51,337 nt of DNA from a virus (taxonomy: Duplodnaviria > Heunggongvirae > Uroviricota > Caudoviricetes). Position numbers and translations under genes: made by a program. Shown piece after piece: positions 11,639 to 30,613 of this stretch; the stretch's first letter is position 1, and the number at the start of each line of letters is the position of its first letter. The notes under the pieces were generated by a model. The model did no database searches. It was not told the DNA's origin and saw only the letters and a program-made list of their open reading frames with translations. The stretch lies in the IMG/VR virus record IMGVR_UViG_3300043399_001190; one strand, 5' to 3'.

Positions 11639-12103
11639 ATGAGTAATTTGATAAATCATGCTATGACAGAATTTCGTGCAGCGAAGTTCGTTGATGAGAA
11701 TGGCGTTTACTGTGACGAGATGCAGGAAGCCATTTGCAATCATGTTTTGAAATTGCTTGAAATTTTTTCTGAAGAGGGGCACTCCGGTTCTTCTGCACCT
11801 TATGCAATCAATATGTTTAAGACCTTGGCGATGTTTGAGCCAATCGTGCCACTGACGGGTGAAGATTGGGAGTGGGTTGAAGTTGCTCGACAAAATGGAC
11901 CTCTTTATCAAAATAAACGAGCAAGTCGTGTGTTTAAAGATGATGATGGTGCATATGATATTGATGGTATTGTGTGGTATGACTGGTACACCAATGATGC
12001 GGGTGAAAAATACAAATCACATTTTACCAATCATAAGAGTAAAGTACCTGTGACTTTTCCGTATACACCAAAAACAGAATATAAAGAATGGATTGAAGAA
12101 TGA
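11639..12103 (+). CDS. conserved phage hypothetical protein
   Basis: FSEEGHSGSSA, PLTGEDWEW, YQNKRASRVFKD motifs. Confidence 0.8.
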   Translation: MSNLINHAMTEFRAAKFVDENGVYCDEMQEAICNHVLKLLEIFSEEGHSGSSAPYAINMFKTLAMFEPIVPLTGEDWEWVEVARQNGPLYQNKRASRVFKDDDGAYDIDGIVWYDWYTNDAGEKYKSHFTNHKSKVPVTFPYTPKTEYKEWIEE

Positions 12104-14401: not shown

Positions 14402-15328
14402 ATGGCAACGACAATAAGTCAAACAACTGTAGTATATCCAGATACATCAACGGAATCATCGCTTAAGTCGCCGGTGAGGGCTATATTTGGATATGGATAT
14501 AATGACATTTCCAACCTCAGTATGACCAATTTCGTTAACAATTATGGCACACTTTCTGTTGATATCACTGGTGTAGGTACACAAAGAAATGTTCTAGCCG
14601 CAGCGGGTTATGGTGGTGATAAAGCCATATTTGGTTATGGTTATGCATCATCACAAGTTTCCTTAACAAACTTGGTTTCCAATCTGGGTGTTGTTGGTAA
14701 TGATGTAACTGGTGTTGGAACTGCAAGATATGAATTGTCCGCAGCGGGTTATGGTGGTGATAAAGCCATATTTGGTTATGGTTATACAACAGTGGAAGTT
14801 TCCTTAACAAACTTGGTTTCCAATCTCGGTGTTGTTGGTAATGATGTAACTGGTGTTGGAACTGCAAGACGAAGCCTTGCTGCGGCAGGTTATGGTGGAG
14901 ATAAAGCCATTTTTGGATATGGTGTCGGATCTGGTTATTTTAATTTAACCAATTTAGTATCTAATACGGGCGTTGTTGGTAATGATGTAACTGGTGTTGG
15001 AACTTCTAGAGAAGGTTTGGCAGCAGCAGGTTATGGTGGAGATAAAGCCATTTTTGGTTATGGTGATACAGGTTCTACATCCGTCAGTTTAACCAATTTA
15101 GTATCTAATACGGGCGTTGTTGGTAATGATGTAACTGGTGTTGGAACAGCAAGACTATACCTTGCGGCAGCAGGTTATGGTGGAGATAAAGCTATATTTG
15201 GATTTGGTTTTATTGGTTCTCCTGTTCGAACAACCAATTTGGTGTCAAATCTTGGTGTTGTTGCGACCAATATTACTGGGATTGGGACATCCAGATATAG
15301 TCTTGCAGCAGCATCATACAGTTCATAA
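14402..15328 (+). CDS. six-repeat beta-propeller-like (Kelch-like) protein A
   Basis: ~47-aa repeat R-xx-LAAAGYGGDKAIFGYG-x(5-9)-TNLVSNxGVVGNDVTGVGT, six AIFG units. Confidence 0.8.
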   Translation: MATTISQTTVVYPDTSTESSLKSPVRAIFGYGYNDISNLSMTNFVNNYGTLSVDITGVGTQRNVLAAAGYGGDKAIFGYGYASSQVSLTNLVSNLGVVGNDVTGVGTARYELSAAGYGGDKAIFGYGYTTVEVSLTNLVSNLGVVGNDVTGVGTARRSLAAAGYGGDKAIFGYGVGSGYFNLTNLVSNTGVVGNDVTGVGTSREGLAAAGYGGDKAIFGYGDTGSTSVSLTNLVSNTGVVGNDVTGVGTARLYLAAAGYGGDKAIFGFGFIGSPVRTTNLVSNLGVVATNITGIGTSRYSLAAASYSS

Positions 15329-17215
15329 AGAGAATAATAAATGGCAGTAACACTCACTTCAACTGGCGTTCTCTACAACGACACTACAACAATCACAAAT
15401 AGTGTGACTGCGACTAGAGCTATATTTGGGTATGGTTATAGTTCTGCTTTTACGGCCGTTAGTGTAACAAATTTAGTTAATAATTATGGGCAAGTTGCCA
15501 CAGACACAACAGGTGTGGGAACTGCAAGATACGACTTAGCGGCCGCAGGTTATGGTGGTGACAAAGCAATATTTGGATATGGCGCACTCACTGACGGCAC
15601 CGTTGTTTCAATGACCAATTTAGTATCTAATTTGGGTGTTGTTGGAAACAATGTAACTGGAGTTGGAACAGCAAGAAAAGGTTTGGCCGCCGCAGGTTAT
15701 GGTGGCGATAAAGCAATTTTTGGTTATGGATGGAACGGATCATCAACTGTCAGTTTGACAAACCTTGTATCCAATACAGGTGTTGTTGGAAACGATGTAA
15801 CAGGAGTTGGAACAACAAGACAACTATTGGCTGCCGCTGGTTATGGTGGCGATAAAGCAATTTTCGGATATGGCGGGGGTGCATCAATTTATTCATTAAC
15901 CAATTTAGTTTCAAATACAGGTGTTGTTGGAAACGATGTAACAGGAGTTGGAACAGCAAGAACACAGTTAGCTGCTGCTGGCTATGGTGGTGATAAAGCA
16001 ATTTTTGGTTATGGTTATGAAAATTTATCAATGACCAATCTTGTATCAAATATCGGAGTTGTCAGCACAGATGTTACAGGCGTAGGTTCGGGAAGACACG
16101 GACCAGCCGCGGCAGGTTATGGTGGTGATAAAGCAATTTTTGGTTATGGTTATGCGAGCACAGTTACATGGTACAATTTGACTAATCTGGTGTCGAATAC
16201 GGGTGTTGTTAGTTCAGATGTTACAGGTGTCGGTACAACCAGATATAGTTTGGCGGCGGCCTCATACAGTTCATAAAGAGAAAATAAATGGCAACAAGTT
16301 TAGTAAGTCAGGGTGTTCAATATCCAAACGGTTCGATACGAACAAGTGGTAAATGGGCCGTTAAAGCAATATTCGGACATGGTGCAATAGTTGGTGGTGC
16401 TTATGGTGTAACAAATTTAGTAAACAACTACGGCGTGGTTTCCACGGATATTACTGCGGTAGGCACACCAAGATTTAGATTGGCCGCAGCAGGATATGGT
16501 GGCGATAAGGCCATATTCGGATATGGAAGTGATGATACAACAGTAAGAAGTTTCACCAATTTAATTTCAAATTTGGGTGTTTCATCATCAGATATCACTG
16601 GTGTTGGTACGGCGAGAAGAAATTTAGCAGCAGCTACTTATGGTGTTGATAAGGCCATATTTGGTTATGGGTTTTCAACTGCGAGTGTATCTTTGACAAA
16701 TTTGGTGTCGAATATTGGAGTTGTTGCAGGCGATACTACAGGTGTGGGTACTGCAAGAAATGGTTTAGCTGCGGCTGGATATGGTGGAGATAAAGCAATA
16801 TTTGGTTACGGATTTTCAACTGTAAATGTGTCATTAACAAATTTAGTTTCGAATTTAGGTGTGGTTGGCACAGATGTTACCGGTGTCGGAACTGCCAGAG
16901 TATATTTGGCCGCAGCAGGATATGGTGGCGATAAGGCCTTATTCGGATATGGTTACACCAGCACTCCTGTTTCAATGACTAATTTGGTTTCAAATGCCGG
17001 TGTAGTTGGTTCAGATGTTACCGGTGTTGGAACTGCTAGATACTATCTTGCGGCCGCGGGATATGGTGGCGATAAGGCCATATTCGGGTATGGAACAATT
17101 GGTAGCGCACCATATATAAATTTGACAAACTTGGTGACTAATTTGGGTTCCGTCGGTACTGATAAAACTGGCGTTGGAACAGCTAGATATGGTTTAGCCG
17201 CGGCATCATATAGTT
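14480..17215 (+). repeat. ~141-nt coding tandem repeats (about 18 units in three genes)
   Basis: For example CCGCAGCGGGTTATGGTGGTGATAAAGCCATATTTGGTTATGGTTAT recurs 141 nt apart in gene A. Confidence 0.95.
15341..16276 (+). CDS. six-repeat beta-propeller-like protein B
   Basis: Same repeat; ends RYSLAAASYSS. Confidence 0.8.
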   Translation: MAVTLTSTGVLYNDTTTITNSVTATRAIFGYGYSSAFTAVSVTNLVNNYGQVATDTTGVGTARYDLAAAGYGGDKAIFGYGALTDGTVVSMTNLVSNLGVVGNNVTGVGTARKGLAAAGYGGDKAIFGYGWNGSSTVSLTNLVSNTGVVGNDVTGVGTTRQLLAAAGYGGDKAIFGYGGGASIYSLTNLVSNTGVVGNDVTGVGTARTQLAAAGYGGDKAIFGYGYENLSMTNLVSNIGVVSTDVTGVGSGRHGPAAAGYGGDKAIFGYGYASTVTWYNLTNLVSNTGVVSSDVTGVGTTRYSLAAASYSS

Positions 17216-17220
17216 CATAA
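16288..17220 (+). CDS. six-repeat beta-propeller-like protein C
   Basis: Same repeat; ends RYGLAAASYSS. Confidence 0.8.
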   Translation: MATSLVSQGVQYPNGSIRTSGKWAVKAIFGHGAIVGGAYGVTNLVNNYGVVSTDITAVGTPRFRLAAAGYGGDKAIFGYGSDDTTVRSFTNLISNLGVSSSDITGVGTARRNLAAATYGVDKAIFGYGFSTASVSLTNLVSNIGVVAGDTTGVGTARNGLAAAGYGGDKAIFGYGFSTVNVSLTNLVSNLGVVGTDVTGVGTARVYLAAAGYGGDKALFGYGYTSTPVSMTNLVSNAGVVGSDVTGVGTARYYLAAAGYGGDKAIFGYGTIGSAPYINLTNLVTNLGSVGTDKTGVGTARYGLAAASYSS

Positions 17221-18328: not shown

Positions 18329-18364
18329 TTGCCACCTAAATAATAAAACACTATAATAGTGTTT
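18329..18364 (+). promoter_or_regulatory. composite promoter of the original tmRNA locus
   Basis: TTGCCA(18329)-17-TATAAT(18352); embedded TAAATA(18337); AAACACTA/TAGTGTTT palindrome around the -10. Confidence 0.75.
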
Positions 18365-18412
18365 ATGGTTGTACGAAGCAACTAGAAAAATGTTCTGGAC
18401 GCGGGTTCGATT
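18364..18412 (+). pseudogene. ssrA: truncated tmRNA acceptor-piece copy broken at the T-loop
   Basis: GGTTGTACGAAG...GTTCTGGACGCGGGTTCGATT aligns with GCTGTATGAAG...GTCTTGGACGGGAGTTCGATT at 19541-19585 but lacks the 3' T-stem, acceptor strand and CCA. Confidence 0.8.
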
Positions 18413-18911
18413 AAGCCTGTTTTACCATGAAACCACCATGTGTCTTATTACCTCGTAATGACGCATTGGCAAAGGCATTAGCATTGTATCCGCGATCCAT
18501 ACACCACTGACGCAACCCTTCTACTCGCTCAACGGTTCCGTCTGGATGAGTAACATCATAAACCTTCCCAGTCCAAGTTTTACCCCTTGCTTGTCTCGCA
18601 CTCTTGTATTTCTGGTGTAGTTCGGCGGCTCTTTCAGCACCGAAGATTTCTTCCCATTTCTTGCCCTTACGCTGTCTGATGTTTGTTTGTCCACCTTTTC
18701 TACTACCAGCCATGATTGCTTCCTTAGCGGCATCAAAGTTAGCATCAAGTTGGGCAAGTCCTTGCCAAGCAACATAATCCTGCCAATGCCCATGTTGTTC
18801 ATACAATAAACGATGTGCTTCGGCATGTTCGCCCGGTGTTAGTTCGATGAGGTTGCTTGGATCGTCTGAACCGCCCATGTGTTTTGGGATAATATGATGT
18901 TTGTGTCTCAT
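18411..18911 (-). CDS. HNH homing endonuclease (NUMOD-like C-terminus)
   Basis: MRHKHHIIPKHMGGSDDPSNLIELT..EHAEAHRLL (Mob-type HNH), KGKKWEEIFG repeat-like motif; TAAATA 5 nt upstream of the ATG. Confidence 0.9.
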   Translation of the reverse strand: MRHKHHIIPKHMGGSDDPSNLIELTPGEHAEAHRLLYEQHGHWQDYVAWQGLAQLDANFDAAKEAIMAGSRKGGQTNIRQRKGKKWEEIFGAERAAELHQKYKSARQARGKTWTGKVYDVTHPDGTVERVEGLRQWCMDRGYNANAFANASLRGNKTHGGFMVKQA

Positions 18912-18922
18912 ACTATTATTTA

Positions 18923-18972
18923 GTCGAAACCATAGAAAAACGCTTGACAAAGGTTTCGACAAGTGTTATACT
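18923..18972 (+). promoter_or_regulatory. early promoter within an inverted repeat
   Basis: GTCGAAACC/GGTTTCGAC arms; TTGACA(18944)-17-TATACT(18967). Confidence 0.8.
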
Positions 18973-18995
18973 CTGTTAAATTCTGGAGTTAATAA

Positions 18996-19307
18996 ATGAT
19001 TGACTATTATGAAGCCTTGAGAGAAATGCACCGTGGCAATGTTGTAAAGTATGTGGGCACAGTGAATGGCAATGTAATGAGTGACAATGGTGCCAGTTTC
19101 TGTATGTGTCGCGGGTGTATATTTCTCTTTGACCGCGGAGAAATCAAATGGAACAAGTTAGGCTACATGGTCTATGACCCAGACTTTCGTTACGAACTAA
19201 CTGGCGAAACAGTTGACCCGAGGGCATGGAAGCCAGAGAAGAACAGAGACCGTAAAGAGATTAAATCAAAGTTGGGTTATAGTCGTGTAGGATTGGGGAA
19301 TGTATGA
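18996..19307 (+). CDS. hypothetical protein, paralog of 8850-9158
   Basis: GGAG RBS; end-to-end similarity. Confidence 0.85.
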   Translation: MIDYYEALREMHRGNVVKYVGTVNGNVMSDNGASFCMCRGCIFLFDRGEIKWNKLGYMVYDPDFRYELTGETVDPRAWKPEKNRDRKEIKSKLGYSRVGLGNV

Positions 19308-19528
19308 ACGAACGAATTAAAGAACTTGCGAGAGAGGCTGGTCTTCTGGTATATAATCCTGAAGGTGCCCCAACTAAGTTAGAAAAGTTCGCCGAGTTGA
19401 TTGTTAGAGAATGTATCGGTTGTTGTGAGCAAGTGATTAGCGATCCTGTTCCCGAATCGGTAGATACTTGGTTGAATGGTGGTGAACAATGTATCCAAGA
19501 AATTAAACAACACTTTGGAGTAGAATAA
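19304..19528 (+). CDS. MNER-family hypothetical protein
   Basis: MNERIKELA...KFAELIVREC...IKQHFGVE. Confidence 0.85.
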   Translation: MNERIKELAREAGLLVYNPEGAPTKLEKFAELIVRECIGCCEQVISDPVPESVDTWLNGGEQCIQEIKQHFGVE

Positions 19529-19536
19529 ATAAGAGT

Positions 19537-19863
19537 TATTGCTGTATGAAGTGAAGTGAAACAGGTCTTGGACGGGAGTTCGATTCTCCCCACCTCCACC
19601 AAAAGAACACACATCGCTACTCACCTGAAATAGTGCGATGGTACAGATGATAGTGGTGAAGTAATATCTGCTTATGTGTGCTTTTGATGGGGGTGACTGG
19701 TTTCGACAGGGCAAAGAGTAACAGAGTGGACAGCACGGTAGGCGATGACCGTAAATCAAGCAAATCAAGTAAACGCAGCTAATGATAGCCGCTTCGCTCT
19801 TGCCGCTTAAACGGTAATCGAATGGGGATTTGTAGATTGTTCCTTATTAACCAAACAATCTAC
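19537..19863 (+). ncRNA. ssrA: circularly permuted (two-piece) tmRNA: acceptor piece ~19537-19601, intervening sequence 19602-19688, coding piece 19689-~19863
   Basis: T-arm GGGAG-TTCGATT-CTCCC followed by CACCTCC-A-CCA; downstream GGGGGTG-ACTGGTTTCGAC forms a 7-bp acceptor stem with G3.U70; tag frame 19775-19810 AANDSRFALAA*; terminal hairpin GTAGATTGTT/AACAATCTAC; TAAATA at 19526. Outer ends approximate. Confidence 0.93.
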
Positions 19864-19883: not shown

Positions 19884-20441
19884 ATGCGAAGTAAACCAAT
19901 ACTTTTCAGCATAGTTTTTTCCGCAGCAGTGATATCTTTGGGTATGATTAATGTTGATCTACATGGTTTGTTACCCTTCAAAACATCTTATAACAATCTT
20001 TCAAAAGATGTGCAAAAACAAGTCACATGCCTTGCGGAAAATATTTACTTTGAGGCCGCACATGAGCCACTTTCTGGAAAAAAAGCAGTAGCGTTTGTAA
20101 CATTGAACCGTCTGCAATCTGGAAACTATGCTAATACAATTTGTGATGTGGTCTTTCAAAAGACCAACGGTGTTTGCCAATTCTCTTGGTATTGCGATTC
20201 AAATATACTGAAGAAGAGGTTGACAATACGTGACACTATGCTTTATAATGAGATTCGTGAGTTGGCAACAAACATAGTTGTAAACTTCGAACGCATGAAG
20301 GATGTTACCGATGGTGCAACCTACTATCATGCGGATTATGTGAATCCTGGTTGGAAACTAAAGAAAATTGACCAAATTGGTCGACATATTTTCTATAGAA
20401 GCCATAAGGATAATATTGACAGAAACAAGGAAATTATATGA
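19884..20441 (+). CDS. SleB-like cell wall hydrolase (Hydrolase_2)
   Basis: CLAENIYFEA, AVAFVTLNR, ICDVVFQ, CQFSWYC, GATYYHADYVNPGW, IGRHIFY; N-terminal hydrophobic anchor. Confidence 0.92.
   Translation: MRSKPILFSIVFSAAVISLGMINVDLHGLLPFKTSYNNLSKDVQKQVTCLAENIYFEAAHEPLSGKKAVAFVTLNRLQSGNYANTICDVVFQKTNGVCQFSWYCDSNILKKRLTIRDTMLYNEIRELATNIVVNFERMKDVTDGATYYHADYVNPGWKLKKIDQIGRHIFYRSHKDNIDRNKEII
20220..20249 (+). promoter_or_regulatory. intragenic sigma70-type promoter
   Basis: TTGACA-18-TATAAT within the hydrolase gene, upstream of genes 33/59. Confidence 0.6.
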
Positions 20442-20671
20442 GTGAAGCTAAAAACCAAAATACTTTGATTACAATTATACTTTGTACCACTATTGTAATT
20501 GGTTCAACCGTTATTGGTGCATTTCTGTACAACATCAATGATCGTAATAACATGGCAAAAAACATCGAGGCAGCTATTCAAAAAGGTGTTGATCCACTTT
20601 CTGTCAAGTGTTCTTACGAAATGAGCCCAACTTCTACCTGCATTGCATACGCAATGGCGACCAAAAAATAA
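20438..20671 (+). CDS. small membrane-anchored protein
   Basis: N-terminal TM helix; GVDPLSVKC. Confidence 0.75.
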   Translation: MSEAKNQNTLITIILCTTIVIGSTVIGAFLYNINDRNNMAKNIEAAIQKGVDPLSVKCSYEMSPTSTCIAYAMATKK

Positions 20672-20895
20672 TGCCTACGAAAGATGAAATGAGAGATTTC
20701 AGTGCCATCATTGAAAAGTTGGCACTAGAAAAAGCAATAAGTCTAATGGACGCGGTGGTACTACACTGCGAACAAATTGGTTTTGAAGTTGAATTGGCTG
20801 CTTCCCTTTTAACACCACCAATCAAAGCTAAAATTGGTGAAGAGGCGCAAGCACTAAACTTAATGAAAAAGAAAGTAAATAAATTGCCACTATGA
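20671..20895 (+). CDS. 33: late transcription coactivator gp33-like
   Basis: FSAIIEKL...MDAVVLHCE...E.AASLL...IKAKI.EEA..LNLM; synteny 33-59-32. Confidence 0.8.
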   Translation: MPTKDEMRDFSAIIEKLALEKAISLMDAVVLHCEQIGFEVELAASLLTPPIKAKIGEEAQALNLMKKKVNKLPL

Positions 20896-28406: not shown

Positions 28407-30179
28407 CTAGAATCGGTATGCGATTAAATCGTATCCATCTATGAAAGTTTTGTAACCTTTATTGTCGAGAACCCAACGCATCCATACAGATTTATTGTAT
28501 GTTATGTGTGCAATTTCAATTTTGTATATGTCTGCTGTTAAACCATTTTCATGTAGTTGCAGAAATATATTGTAATCGAAACCCTCTGTATCAACCTGAA
28601 TAAAATTAATATCTTTATCCGAGATACCATATTTTTGATAAAGCGATTTAATTGTCAGACCACTAACGGTTTCGGTAACCATATGTTCACGTAAATCCTG
28701 TATGTGGTTTTCTGGCACTAAAGTTGAACAACCTTCAGCCCATTCTCGCACATCGGTACCTATTTTATGCGTGGGAATCCTATGCATTTCAATTGGTCCG
28801 TCTTTGTCGGTTATTGCGGAACACTCAAAAGTTAGCCTAGGATTGTCCTTGTAGTTCTCGGTCAGTCTTTTGAACATATCAGGAAGAGGTTCAACCAGAT
28901 ATCCAGACCATTCATTATTGTTGACATAATCATACAGCTCATCATGCTTGACACCATCCATTGCACCTATTTGCAAGAATGTTACTTTACCGTTTTTTAT
29001 ACGGTTGTATTGATTTAATATCTGTTTGAACGTTTTCTTATTTTCTGGATATTCTTTCGTTAGCCATTCAAGCTCTGTTCTAGAATTATTTGGTGCATAC
29101 CAGCCAGAACCATCTGATACATTTATCAGAGATTGAAAGTATTCGGTATACATTTTACCGACTTTTTCCATATTATAATTTTTTTCTGCCCAATCTCTAC
29201 ATGCTTTGGGTGAAATGGTATCAATATTTTTTGCTGCCCAAACGAACTGTTCGAAAGTCCGGCAACGAAAACCAGTAATTCCGTGTTGCACAGTTTCAGT
29301 GAATGCACCCCAGTCCGTTGAAATGACTGGTGTGCCAGATAACATTGCTTCAATTGCAACATAACCGAATGGTTCATTGTAGATTGTTGGGCAGAATAGC
29401 CCTTTAGCTCCAGCCATCAGTTTCTTACGTTTTTCAACATCAGCATAACCAACATATTCAACGTGTTTTGGCCATTCGTGACCAACGTGGCAATCATGTG
29501 GCCCGTAAGTTGTTCCAGCCAGTACCAATTTTACACCAAGTTTTTCGCACACTTGTGCTGCAATATTGACACCCTTTGACCATACAAGTCTACCTACCAT
29601 TAAAAAATAATCTTGCTTTTCTTCTGTGTACTGAAACTCAGAAAGATCAAAGCCAGATGGGATTGCAACATCATAAAACTTGTATTCTGCATTCGATATC
29701 TTCTCTGGTCCCTGTAACCCGTGCATGACAGCGTAAGATTCATATACTTTGAAAGGTGCGTATGCGGAGCTATAACCAATGCTGGGTTCACAGATAATTA
29801 AATCAGGAAACGCATCTGTGATAGCTTTGTGCCCATATCCAAAAAACGATAGAACAATATCATGTGGTTGTTTTCTTTTATTGATTTCACGTATTGAATT
29901 TTCCGTGAAAGTTTTGTACATTTCATCACTGAGGTCGAAAATCAAACCTTTTTCTTTCCAGTTATTGTGACCATAGACCTTTTCCCAAAGTTCTATAGAA
30001 GAAACTGGCACGTGTTCATCACAAATTACCTGTGAATCTTCTCGCCCATAATGAATAACATACATACCCTGTTCTTTGTACATTTTACAAAAATTGATGA
30101 CTTTTTGAGTAAAAGCACAAACTGTAAATTCTTTTCGTGAAGATGTGTGTGGTATTCCTAATACATGTAATCTAATCAT
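28407..30179 (-). CDS. GT4 glycosyltransferase fused to an FkbM-family methyltransferase
   Basis: GRLVWSKG, EPFGYVAIEAMLSGTPVI; C-terminal QIGAMDG, LVEP, IQVDTEGFD. Confidence 0.9.
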   Translation of the reverse strand: MIRLHVLGIPHTSSRKEFTVCAFTQKVINFCKMYKEQGMYVIHYGREDSQVICDEHVPVSSIELWEKVYGHNNWKEKGLIFDLSDEMYKTFTENSIREINKRKQPHDIVLSFFGYGHKAITDAFPDLIICEPSIGYSSAYAPFKVYESYAVMHGLQGPEKISNAEYKFYDVAIPSGFDLSEFQYTEEKQDYFLMVGRLVWSKGVNIAAQVCEKLGVKLVLAGTTYGPHDCHVGHEWPKHVEYVGYADVEKRKKLMAGAKGLFCPTIYNEPFGYVAIEAMLSGTPVISTDWGAFTETVQHGITGFRCRTFEQFVWAAKNIDTISPKACRDWAEKNYNMEKVGKMYTEYFQSLINVSDGSGWYAPNNSRTELEWLTKEYPENKKTFKQILNQYNRIKNGKVTFLQIGAMDGVKHDELYDYVNNNEWSGYLVEPLPDMFKRLTENYKDNPRLTFECSAITDKDGPIEMHRIPTHKIGTDVREWAEGCSTLVPENHIQDLREHMVTETVSGLTIKSLYQKYGISDKDINFIQVDTEGFDYNIFLQLHENGLTADIYKIEIAHITYNKSVWMRWVLDNKGYKTFIDGYDLIAYRF

Positions 30180-30613
30180 TTAATTCCCAAATCATGTTCT
30201 GTTAATACTTTAAATTGCCAACCTCGGTCTAGACAGAACTCAGTTGCCGCTTTCCATTTCGCTTCATTGATACCCCAAGTTACAACTTCTTGGATGTATT
30301 GTTTTGTCACTCTTTTCTTTTTTTCTGGAGGTTTTGTCTGTTTCGCAGGTTTTATCTCCAAAATCATTGCCTTGATTGTATCATCTTTTTGTCTAACTTT
30401 CACGAAAAAATCAGGAAAATATCTGTGCCAGCGGTTATCTACCGGAGATTTGTAAGGTATGATGATTTCTTCGGAACTCCATTGGATGATGTTTTCATTA
30501 TTATCTAGCCAGTTCATAACTCTACATTCCCAGGTCGAACGGTAGATTATATTCGTGTAGTCCCCACGATATTTTTGTGGGTTTTTTGGAGTAAATTTTC
30601 CGGAATATGACAT
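30176..30613 (-). CDS. 4: head completion nuclease gp4 (TnsA-like)
   Basis: PKNPQKYRGD, YRSTWE, WSSEE, HRYFPDF, EIKP, NEAKWKAA. Confidence 0.93.
   Translation of the reverse strand: MSYSGKFTPKNPQKYRGDYTNIIYRSTWECRVMNWLDNNENIIQWSSEEIIIPYKSPVDNRWHRYFPDFFVKVRQKDDTIKAMILEIKPAKQTKPPEKKKRVTKQYIQEVVTWGINEAKWKAATEFCLDRGWQFKVLTEHDLGIK

Follow-up and report, generated by a model that had tools for sequence, protein, structure and literature searches.

The stretch of DNA considered here, a 51,337-nt piece of a virus of the class Caudoviricetes (IMG/VR record IMGVR_UViG_3300043399_001190; hereafter the window), carries a gene for transfer-messenger RNA (tmRNA) at positions 19540-19863 of the plus strand, as called by both ARAGORN and Rfam. 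ARAGORN placed the gene in its permuted class, with the tag peptide AANDSRFALAA. The Rfam model RF04321 (tmRNA_permuted) matched it at 121.1 bits (gathering threshold 47; E 3.4e-23) over model positions 1-213 of 213, and RF01850 (beta_tmRNA) matched at 100.6 bits (gathering threshold 84; E 2e-29) as the best member of clan CL00001, the search reporting the best member of this clan only. Support for a permuted tmRNA from these programs is far beyond chance. Taken with its relatives and its surroundings, described below, we consider it highly probable that this is a working two-piece tmRNA gene of betaproteobacterial type, carried by a T4-like phage.

The order of the parts is circularly permuted, the T-arm, acceptor 3' strand and CCA (19570-19601) lying ahead of the acceptor 5' strand and the tag reading frame (19689-19810). 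All parts are on the plus strand. The acceptor piece, as delimited by the Rfam alignments and ARAGORN (19540-19601), opens with the 5' strand of the outer P2 helix (TGCTGT, 19540-45), followed by that of P2a (GTCTT, 19565-69), the T-arm (GGGAG / TTCGATT / CTCCC, 19574-19590), the acceptor 3' strand (CACCTCC, 19591-19597), a discriminator A (19598) and an encoded CCA (19599-19601). An intervening segment, or spacer, of 87 nt (19602-19688) separates it from the coding piece, whose 5' part (19689-19774) begins with the acceptor 5' strand GGGGGTG (19689-19695) and includes a D-loop analogue. The alanine identity elements are complete: the 7-bp acceptor stem formed with CACCTCC, G3.U70 (G19691.T19595), the discriminator A and the CCA. 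In the Rfam alignment, AGGGC at 19708-12 is the P2a 3' strand and ACAGCA at 19730-35 the 3' strand of outer P2, each pairing with its partner in the acceptor piece, and a PK1 hairpin (ACGGT/ACCGT, 19735-52) precedes the resume context GTAAAC and the GCA at 19775. The tag frame (GCA GCT AAT GAT AGC CGC TTC GCT CTT GCC GCT TAA, 19775-19810) encodes AANDSRFALAA, with the tag codons ending at 19807 and the stop codon TAA at 19808-10. The gene ends at 19863 with a hairpin in which GTAGATTG (19832-39) pairs with CAATCTAC (19856-63) around the loop TTCCTTATTAACCAAA; the beta_tmRNA model aligns this hairpin together with its loop CCUUGuuACcaAA. Upstream, AATGGGGA (19821-28) is complementary to TCCTTATT of the loop, making a pseudoknot pairing possible. 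When the precursor is folded to minimum free energy, the T-arm and acceptor stem appear, along with a stem in the spacer, outer P2 and the 3' hairpin.

An earlier, sequence-only reading of the locus had proposed a permuted two-piece tmRNA with this very tag, and its account of the parts was borne out by ARAGORN and the Infernal-type Rfam models: the CCA-bearing 3' half ahead of the GGGGGTG 5' half, the G3.U70 pair with its discriminator A, the P2 pairing of AGGGC with GTCTT, and a resume context TAAAC-GCA leading into a tag that ends in ALAA and a stop codon are all present where they were placed. Its remark that little room is left for pk2-pk4 was also correct; past its tag the window gene has just one hairpin or pseudoknot, as does the beta Rfam model, and this is normal in the beta type.

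The spacer, which is presumably removed on maturation, folds as a stem that prolongs the acceptor stem (z = -2.0 and -2.2 in the folds). A protein encoded there was ruled out, the longest frame being an ORF (open reading frame) of just 8 codons. Among the relatives L001, L051, L053 and L169 the spacer is identical at 85 of 87 positions, and in the wider family it ranges from 28 to 208 nt and is unrelated in sequence.

Lineage, family and expression signals

By its model matches the gene is assigned to the betaproteobacterial type. The two-piece tmRNA of Betaproteobacteria was reportedly described by Sharkady and Williams in 2004 (cited in PMC9004378), and the window gene resembles it in gene order, tRNA-like domain, P2a, PK1 hairpin, a tag of the ANDxx[F/Y]ALAA type and the lone post-tag hairpin or pseudoknot with loop CCUUnUUAnCCAAA. 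It departs from the bacterial genes in its inner P2, which does not fit, in lacking the terminator hairpin, and in having an extra alanine codon, as well as in being phage-borne behind a phage-late promoter motif; its spacer is also longer than that of the beta model (79 nt inserted vs 21 in the model). For a bacterial comparison we sampled 301 genomes from the order of a Herminiimonas metagenome-assembled genome (Burkholderiales). Permuted genes among them carry the tags ANDENFALAA, ANDESYALAA and ANDEHFAIAA, in keeping with the resemblance to betaproteobacterial tags that had been noted from the sequence, and score 165-169 bits on RF01850, against 100.6 for the window gene and 127-134 for its close relatives L001 and L023. 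The two closest bacterial genes sampled are 78-83% identical to the window gene over part of the coding piece and belong to genomes of ~2 Mb with a local G+C content of 40-45%; the window itself has 31-41% G+C. Our best guess at the host is a low-GC member of the Burkholderiales with a two-piece tmRNA of its own. The T-arm/acceptor sequence of the window is identical to that of bacterial tmRNAs, which fits use of the alanyl-tRNA synthetase (AlaRS) and SmpB of the host.

That 32-nt T-arm/acceptor sequence recurs without change in more than 119 viral (IMG/VR) contigs and 30 bacterial contigs. As a host marker it was dropped, because it also matches one-piece tmRNAs of Patescibacteria and others. 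Of 119 viral loci fetched with this probe, 111 hold a permuted tmRNA by ARAGORN, nearly all with tags of the form ANDxx[F/Y]ALAA. Helix covariation was computed on 86 unique family members; canonical pairs make up 98.6% of P2a and 97.1% of outer P2 in this set, and each helix shows compensatory pair types. One position of outer P2 is TA in 49 and CG in 35 members, and another is TA in 48, GT in 23, GC in 6 and AT in 4. The PK1 columns were spoiled by MAFFT misalignment (53.7% canonical), compensatory changes there being visible by eye.

The tag itself is under selection as a peptide. Most of the 80 members with a located tag have GTAAAC or GTAAAT before the GCA, and the family pattern is A-N-D-x-x-[F/Y]-A-L-A-A. 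Across 29 unique 10-codon frames, there is almost no variation at residues 1-3 and 7-10, and positions 4-5 are free, while the codons vary: leucine is written as TTA, TTG, CTA, CTT or CTG, and the last alanine as GCC, GCT or GCG. Constant residues with varying codons indicate selection on the peptide and, hence, that the tag is read. The second alanine codon of the window gene (GCT) is an insertion of 3 nt that sets it apart from nearly all relatives; otherwise only L013 has it.

Downstream of its tag, the window gene has what we term the class 2 module (UGGGG, a spacer, an 8-bp stem, the loop UCCUUAUUAACCAAA and the returning stem strand). The 3' stem covaries across the class 2 relatives L005, L013, L019, L085, L088, L102 and L114, and the upstream UGGGG or UGAGG remains complementary to the loop CCUUA, which fits a pseudoknot; this statement comes from class 2 sequences read by eye, the automatic detector being unreliable.

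Ahead of the RNA lies a T4-late-type promoter motif, AATAAATA (19524-19531, plus strand), which ends 8 nt before the RNA start, overlaps the stop codon of the ORF at 19304-19528, and is conserved in L001, L051, L053 and L062. The same motif had been remarked on from the sequence, and its distribution strengthens the case: ATAAATA is depleted in the window as a whole (11 copies vs ~20 expected), and seven of the ten plus-strand copies stand 3-45 nt ahead of the start of a gene or RNA, baseplate genes included (binomial P ~2e-8). This position bias supports the motif as the T4-type late promoter of the window phage, and a gp33-like late-transcription coactivator is encoded nearby. Across the 86 family members, the 5' flank has, at a set spacing to the RNA start, a TATAAT-type -10 box in 55 cases and the T4-late ATAAATA motif in 13; promoter class has thus been swapped repeatedly ahead of one RNA gene. 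The promoter scan also places a sigma-70-like promoter at 18944-18972 (plus strand), facing two small ORFs at 18996-19528, from which read-through into the tmRNA gene could occur. No terminator was predicted between the end of the tmRNA at 19863 and the next gene, a cell-wall hydrolase gene at 19884, so that transcription may continue into the latter.

The HNH cassette and the mosaic gene

About 1.1 kb upstream of the working gene is a second piece of tmRNA, which the sequence-only reading overlooked together with the HNH cassette (both within 18329-18962); that the gene is a mosaic likewise escaped it. Alignment identifies it as a dead 5' fragment of an acceptor piece of another subtype (18365-18412, plus strand; ATGGTTGTACGAAGCAACTAG...GGACGCGGGTTCGATT). 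This stump consists of the first 48 nt (TGGTTGT...GCAACTAG...GGACGCGGGTTCGATT), is cut within the T-loop, and ends exactly at the stop codon of a minus-strand gene (18411-18962) for an HNH homing endonuclease of 183 aa. The HNH protein matches PHROG 655 ('homing endonuclease') at E 6e-17 and, marginally, the Pfam HNH family PF01844 (22.5 bits vs a cut-off of 21.4). In front of the stump, the promoter scan finds a sigma-70-like promoter, TTGCCA-N17-TATAAT (18329-18357, plus strand; 11/12 matches), whose spacing to the RNA start equals that of the TATAAT boxes in most family members; it would now transcribe antisense to the HNH gene.

The association of this nuclease with tmRNA extends well beyond the window. 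Among 21 viral HNH homologs (at least 41% identity), 18-19 directly adjoin a permuted tmRNA gene or fragment, usually divergent from the tmRNA 5' end; one neighbour is a one-piece tmRNA gene. A junction of the form ...GGACGCGGGTTCGAYT/AAGCC is common to eight contigs (L164-L169, L171 and L174, with GGCGG in L171), and to its left the 5' subtypes of the stumps and their promoters differ among the eight. Intact neighbouring copies have T-stems GGGAG, GGGGG, GCGAG or CCGGG, and never the GCGGG of the stump. The segment 18314-19518, comprising the HNH gene and the small ORFs, is kept in L001 at 93% identity, and some relatives, L023 among them, share the tmRNA module of the window with no HNH match in the stretch examined. 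Among the papers searched, none described this layout of HNH gene and tmRNA stump.

We considered and rejected a group I intron at 18413-19582, inserted in the T-loop: Rfam gave no intron match there, and the HNH gene is on the opposite strand. Such a reading also fails because within the segment there is another promoter with another 5' part, both complete, and because the GCGGG of the stump is unmatched to the downstream CTCCC.

From the promoter to the 3' strand of outer P2 (window 19540-19735), the window gene is 97-100% identical to L001, L051, L053 and L169; past outer P2, the same comparison gives 58-67% across the tag frame and, further on in the 3' region, 28-52%. As these alignments read, the gene is a mosaic with a break just after the outer P2 helix. 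The tRNA-like domain and P2 module probably arrived along with the adjoining HNH cassette, and the module of tag and 3' pseudoknot has a separate history. On the simplest reading, the cassette would have entered a resident gene at its T-loop and restored it with a promoter and a tRNA-like/P2 module of its own, with a conversion tract that stops directly after the final nucleotide required for the two P2 strands to stay matched.

Tentatively, and as one plausible reading that we hold well short of conviction, we propose that this HNH family is specialised on phage tmRNA genes, and that its T-loop cassette, seen in the window and in at least seven related contigs, restores the gene with a promoter and a complete tRNA-like domain plus P2 module that it carries along, while leaving the resident promoter and 5' part as a dead stump, which could then serve as the left homology arm in further homing. 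If this is correct, the tRNA-like domain and the tag/pseudoknot part are separately exchangeable modules. It would explain why identity breaks after outer P2, with the pairing partners travelling together; why one slot has an alpha-type tmRNA in the related phage Melnitz (discussed later) and a beta-type in the window; and why the promoter of the working copy has changed from sigma-70 type to late type.

This proposal has precedents in part. The SegB protein of T4 is a free-standing homing endonuclease in a tRNA cluster, and the window resembles homing endonucleases at stable-RNA genes in having a nuclease at a highly conserved RNA gene. Group I introns situated in the T-loop of tmRNA can carry homing-endonuclease genes (PMC11915505), and the insertion point of the window cassette is likewise the T-loop. 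As with homing elements, the cassette is present or absent among related genomes, and the pattern of identity resembles a co-conversion tract. Unlike T-loop intron homing, the window has no intron and its HNH gene is on the opposite strand; restoration of the gene would come not from splicing but from an additional promoter together with an additional, complete 5' part, with a dead stump left over. The HNH cassette with its dead stump is the new element at this locus.

Between the HNH gene and the tmRNA gene lie the two small ORFs already mentioned (103 and 74 aa, overlapping; 18996-19528, plus strand), neither of which has a Pfam or PHROG match. In L062/L112 (IMGVR_UViG_3300007169_000322) the smaller ORF (window 19304-19528) occurs in partial repeats between HNH and tmRNA; window 19380-19518 matches two or three places there, and ~1.4 kb of extra DNA precedes the tmRNA, indicating that the HNH-tmRNA interval is itself variable.

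Phage setting and known counterparts

By gene content, the window phage is classed as a T4-like myophage, kin to the pelagimyophages, Melnitz and the cyanomyophages. This assignment rests on PHROG and Pfam matches of its ORFs, which include baseplate genes (gp5, gp6, gp7, gp25, gp53 and a gp48-like gene), the gp59 helicase loader, the gp32 single-strand-binding protein, PhoH, a PDDEXK nuclease and a gp33-like late-transcription coactivator (20608-20895). The window gp6 is 38-41% identical to those of the Pelagibacter phages HTVC008M and Mosig, the Methylophilales phage Melnitz and cyanomyophages. Around the tmRNA the order is PhoH (12555), PDDEXK (13706), inserted ORFs, tmRNA, hydrolase, gp33-like (20608), gp59 (20892), NT5C and gp32 (22048). 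A blastn search of the tmRNA locus against deposited phage genomes returned nothing at E 1e-5, and only short partial matches at E 1.

Several other features of the window deserve mention. An ORF at 11639-12103 (plus strand) matches the Pfam family Tad3, a type I Thoeris inhibitor (122 bits, E 1.5e-35), and is a candidate anti-defence gene. Three successive ORFs of near-equal size (308, 311 and 310 aa; 14402-17220, plus strand), without Pfam match, lie in the interval from the PDDEXK nuclease to the tmRNA region, a place at which Melnitz has just two small ORFs; the first of the three has an ATAAATA motif upstream. Within the baseplate gene block, and on the opposite strand from it, are a 590-aa ORF that combines a glycosyltransferase part (PHROG 3408) with a methyltransferase part (PHROG 8156; ORF at 28407-30179, minus strand) and, adjoining it, an ORF with a TnsA-like endonuclease N-terminal domain (30176-30613, minus strand; PF08722, 81.7 bits).

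The closest described counterpart is the two-piece ssrA of the OM43 phage Melnitz (Buchholz et al. 2022; PMC9004378), gene 86 of record MZ577097.1. Both are permuted two-piece tmRNAs of T4-like marine or aquatic myophages with tags ending in ALAA, and they occupy the same slot, the order in Melnitz being PhoH, PDDEXK, two small ORFs, ssrA, late-transcription coactivator, gp59, ..., thyX, gp32. The gp6 proteins of the two phages are ~39% identical. On RF04321 Melnitz scores 113 bits against 121 for the window, but its ssrA is of the alpha type (RF01849, 106.7 bits; tag ANDNYVPVDYALAA), whereas that of the window is of the beta type (RF01850). Melnitz has a glutamine riboswitch after ssrA; the Rfam scan gave none with the window gene, and no group I intron. 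The Melnitz ssrA promoter was called early by its authors (PMC9004378), whereas the motif in the window is of late type, and only the window has an HNH cassette and a dead tmRNA stump upstream.

Permuted tmRNA genes are also present in two cultured phages of Betaproteobacteria, N4-like podophages of the Schitoviridae as opposed to T4-like myophages, although nucleotide identity to these is ~82-87% over short stretches; neither is annotated in its record. Alcaligenes phage vB_Af_QDWS595 (OK149171.2; L162 1452-1872) scores 93.8 bits on RF01850 and 111 on RF04321, and has the tag ANDNVYAAAA; its gene closes a tRNA cluster, and behind it ARAGORN reports a 'tRNA-Stop (tta)'. In Achromobacter phage JWDelta (KF787094.1; L163 1463-2148; RF04321 95.8 bits), the ARAGORN gene span is far longer and the tag call implausible.

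The sequence-only reading implied novelty for a phage-borne gene of this kind and suggested testing for an independent permutation. The novelty is not supported. A survey of 18,146 phage genomes found 53 unique two-piece structures, 50 of them marine or aquatic, and phage two-piece tmRNAs fall in the cyanobacterial, gamma(beta)proteobacterial and alphaproteobacterial lineages on the tree (PMC9004378), so that all three lineages are already published; the 2025 tmRNA database holds 79 bacteriophage sequences (PMC11915505), and viral contigs hold many members of the window family. As for the second point, the existing beta model accommodates the gene, and there is no call to assume a separate permutation event.

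One sequence bears on permutation in a different way. L126 1803-2440 (= L150; DITF01000195.1, a contig of the metagenome-assembled genome 'bacterium UBP17_UBA6191') contains a complete one-piece tmRNA (RF00023, 136.8 bits; tag ADEDYALAA) whose 3' T-arm, acceptor and CCA continue directly into a spacer followed by another coding piece, these two being 94.6% identical to their counterparts in the window; ARAGORN and RF04321 also call an overlapping permuted gene there, with the tag ANDDTYLLAANA. This could be a recombinant between a one-piece gene and a phage two-piece gene, a 'one-and-a-half' tandem as expected of a permutation intermediate, or an assembly chimera.

Function, rival explanations and significance

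If the gene works as its anatomy suggests, the late transcription apparatus of the phage would initiate at AATAAATA, and the precursor would fold with its halves paired through P2 and the acceptor stem. Host tRNA-processing enzymes would cleave on the 5' side of G1 (19689) and trim back as far as the encoded CCA (19601), with loss of the 87-nt spacer, yielding two base-paired RNAs. The AlaRS of the host would charge this RNA through G3.U70 and A73, and host SmpB and EF-Tu would bring it to ribosomes stalled on broken mRNAs, where translation would resume at GCA (19775) and append AANDSRFALAA, the ALAA end directing the product to ClpXP-type proteases. Ribosomes would thereby be kept available in late infection. 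The sequence-only reading had put forward two possible roles, a supplement to ribosome rescue late in infection and a substitute for host tmRNA lost to defence nucleases.

Several observations weigh against this account. The inner (middle) P2 segments of the Rfam models are non-canonical in the window sequence, and the RF01850 score is just 17 bits over threshold. The terminator-like hairpin at the end of the beta model (positions ~309-328) is deleted in the window alignment, and because of the extra alanine codon the AND motif lies one residue further along than in almost all relatives. The sigma-70-type -10 box of most family members means that late timing is no general property of the family. 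Finally, none of 30 ORFs tested from the 51-kb window matches SmpB (PF01668), as the sequence-only reading had already observed; use of host SmpB is presumed. Phage tmRNAs with no phage smpB reported next to them occur in the mycobacteriophage Bxz1 group and Bacillus phage G (PMC4131195), although those RNAs are one-piece, non-permuted, and from phages of other host phyla.

The strongest rival holds that the tmRNA is of little or no benefit to the phage and persists as target and cargo of a selfish HNH cassette that homes between co-infecting phages, the replacement tRNA-like domain making the insertion harmless. The tight linkage of the HNH family to phage tmRNA genes, the dead 5' fragment with its conserved junction, and an HNH-side module that is 97-100% identical among contigs with differing tag modules are all as this would predict. 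Most family members, however, have no HNH gene nearby and yet keep P2 covariation and a peptide-selected tag, and the slot of the gene is conserved across distantly related phages. A selfish cassette would account for the spread of the gene but not for the intactness of the whole of it, tag included, and we regard this explanation as improbable.

Still less probable, in our view, is that the RNA is no working rescue RNA and instead interferes with host trans-translation as a decoy or inhibitor, for instance by titrating SmpB. A tRNA-like-domain-only RNA of mycobacteriophage DS6A has been reported to be such a decoy or inhibitor (PMC4131195), and both this precedent and the lack of smpB among the window ORFs would suit the idea, as would the fact that the tRNA-like domain is the most conserved module. 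A decoy, though, would have no need of a full tag ORF with a canonical resume context, a stop codon and an ALAA end, nor does the idea agree with peptide-level selection on the tags of the family. That the sequence is simply host-derived (an ssrA taken up by imprecise excision, an attachment site, or part of a mis-assembled contig) is barely credible: tmRNA genes are described as frequent integration sites (PMC4383910), and the T-arm/acceptor is identical to that of bacterial genes, but T4-type phage genes lie on both flanks over 51 kb, no integrase is found among the annotated window ORFs, the gene and its flanks recur in several independent viral contigs, the promoter is of phage-late type, and the nearest sampled bacterial genes are no closer than the partial identity given above.

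The working two-piece tmRNA gene that we favour is a further example of a published and abundant class, and leaves the known facts about that class unchanged. The beta-type family is nevertheless very widespread in uncultured phages, besides having gone unannotated in two cultured phage records, and in this T4-like group the tmRNA slot is conserved while its lineage differs, being alpha in Melnitz and beta in the window. With promoter class varying in the family, different phages may deploy tmRNA at different points of the infection. If upheld, the HNH cassette and its stump would matter more. For annotation, they would be a warning that truncated tmRNA or tRNA-like stumps beside HNH genes are scars, not genes. 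For the biology of these phages, they would offer a testable route by which selfish nucleases shuffle structural modules of an essential stable RNA between phages, with no splicing involved.

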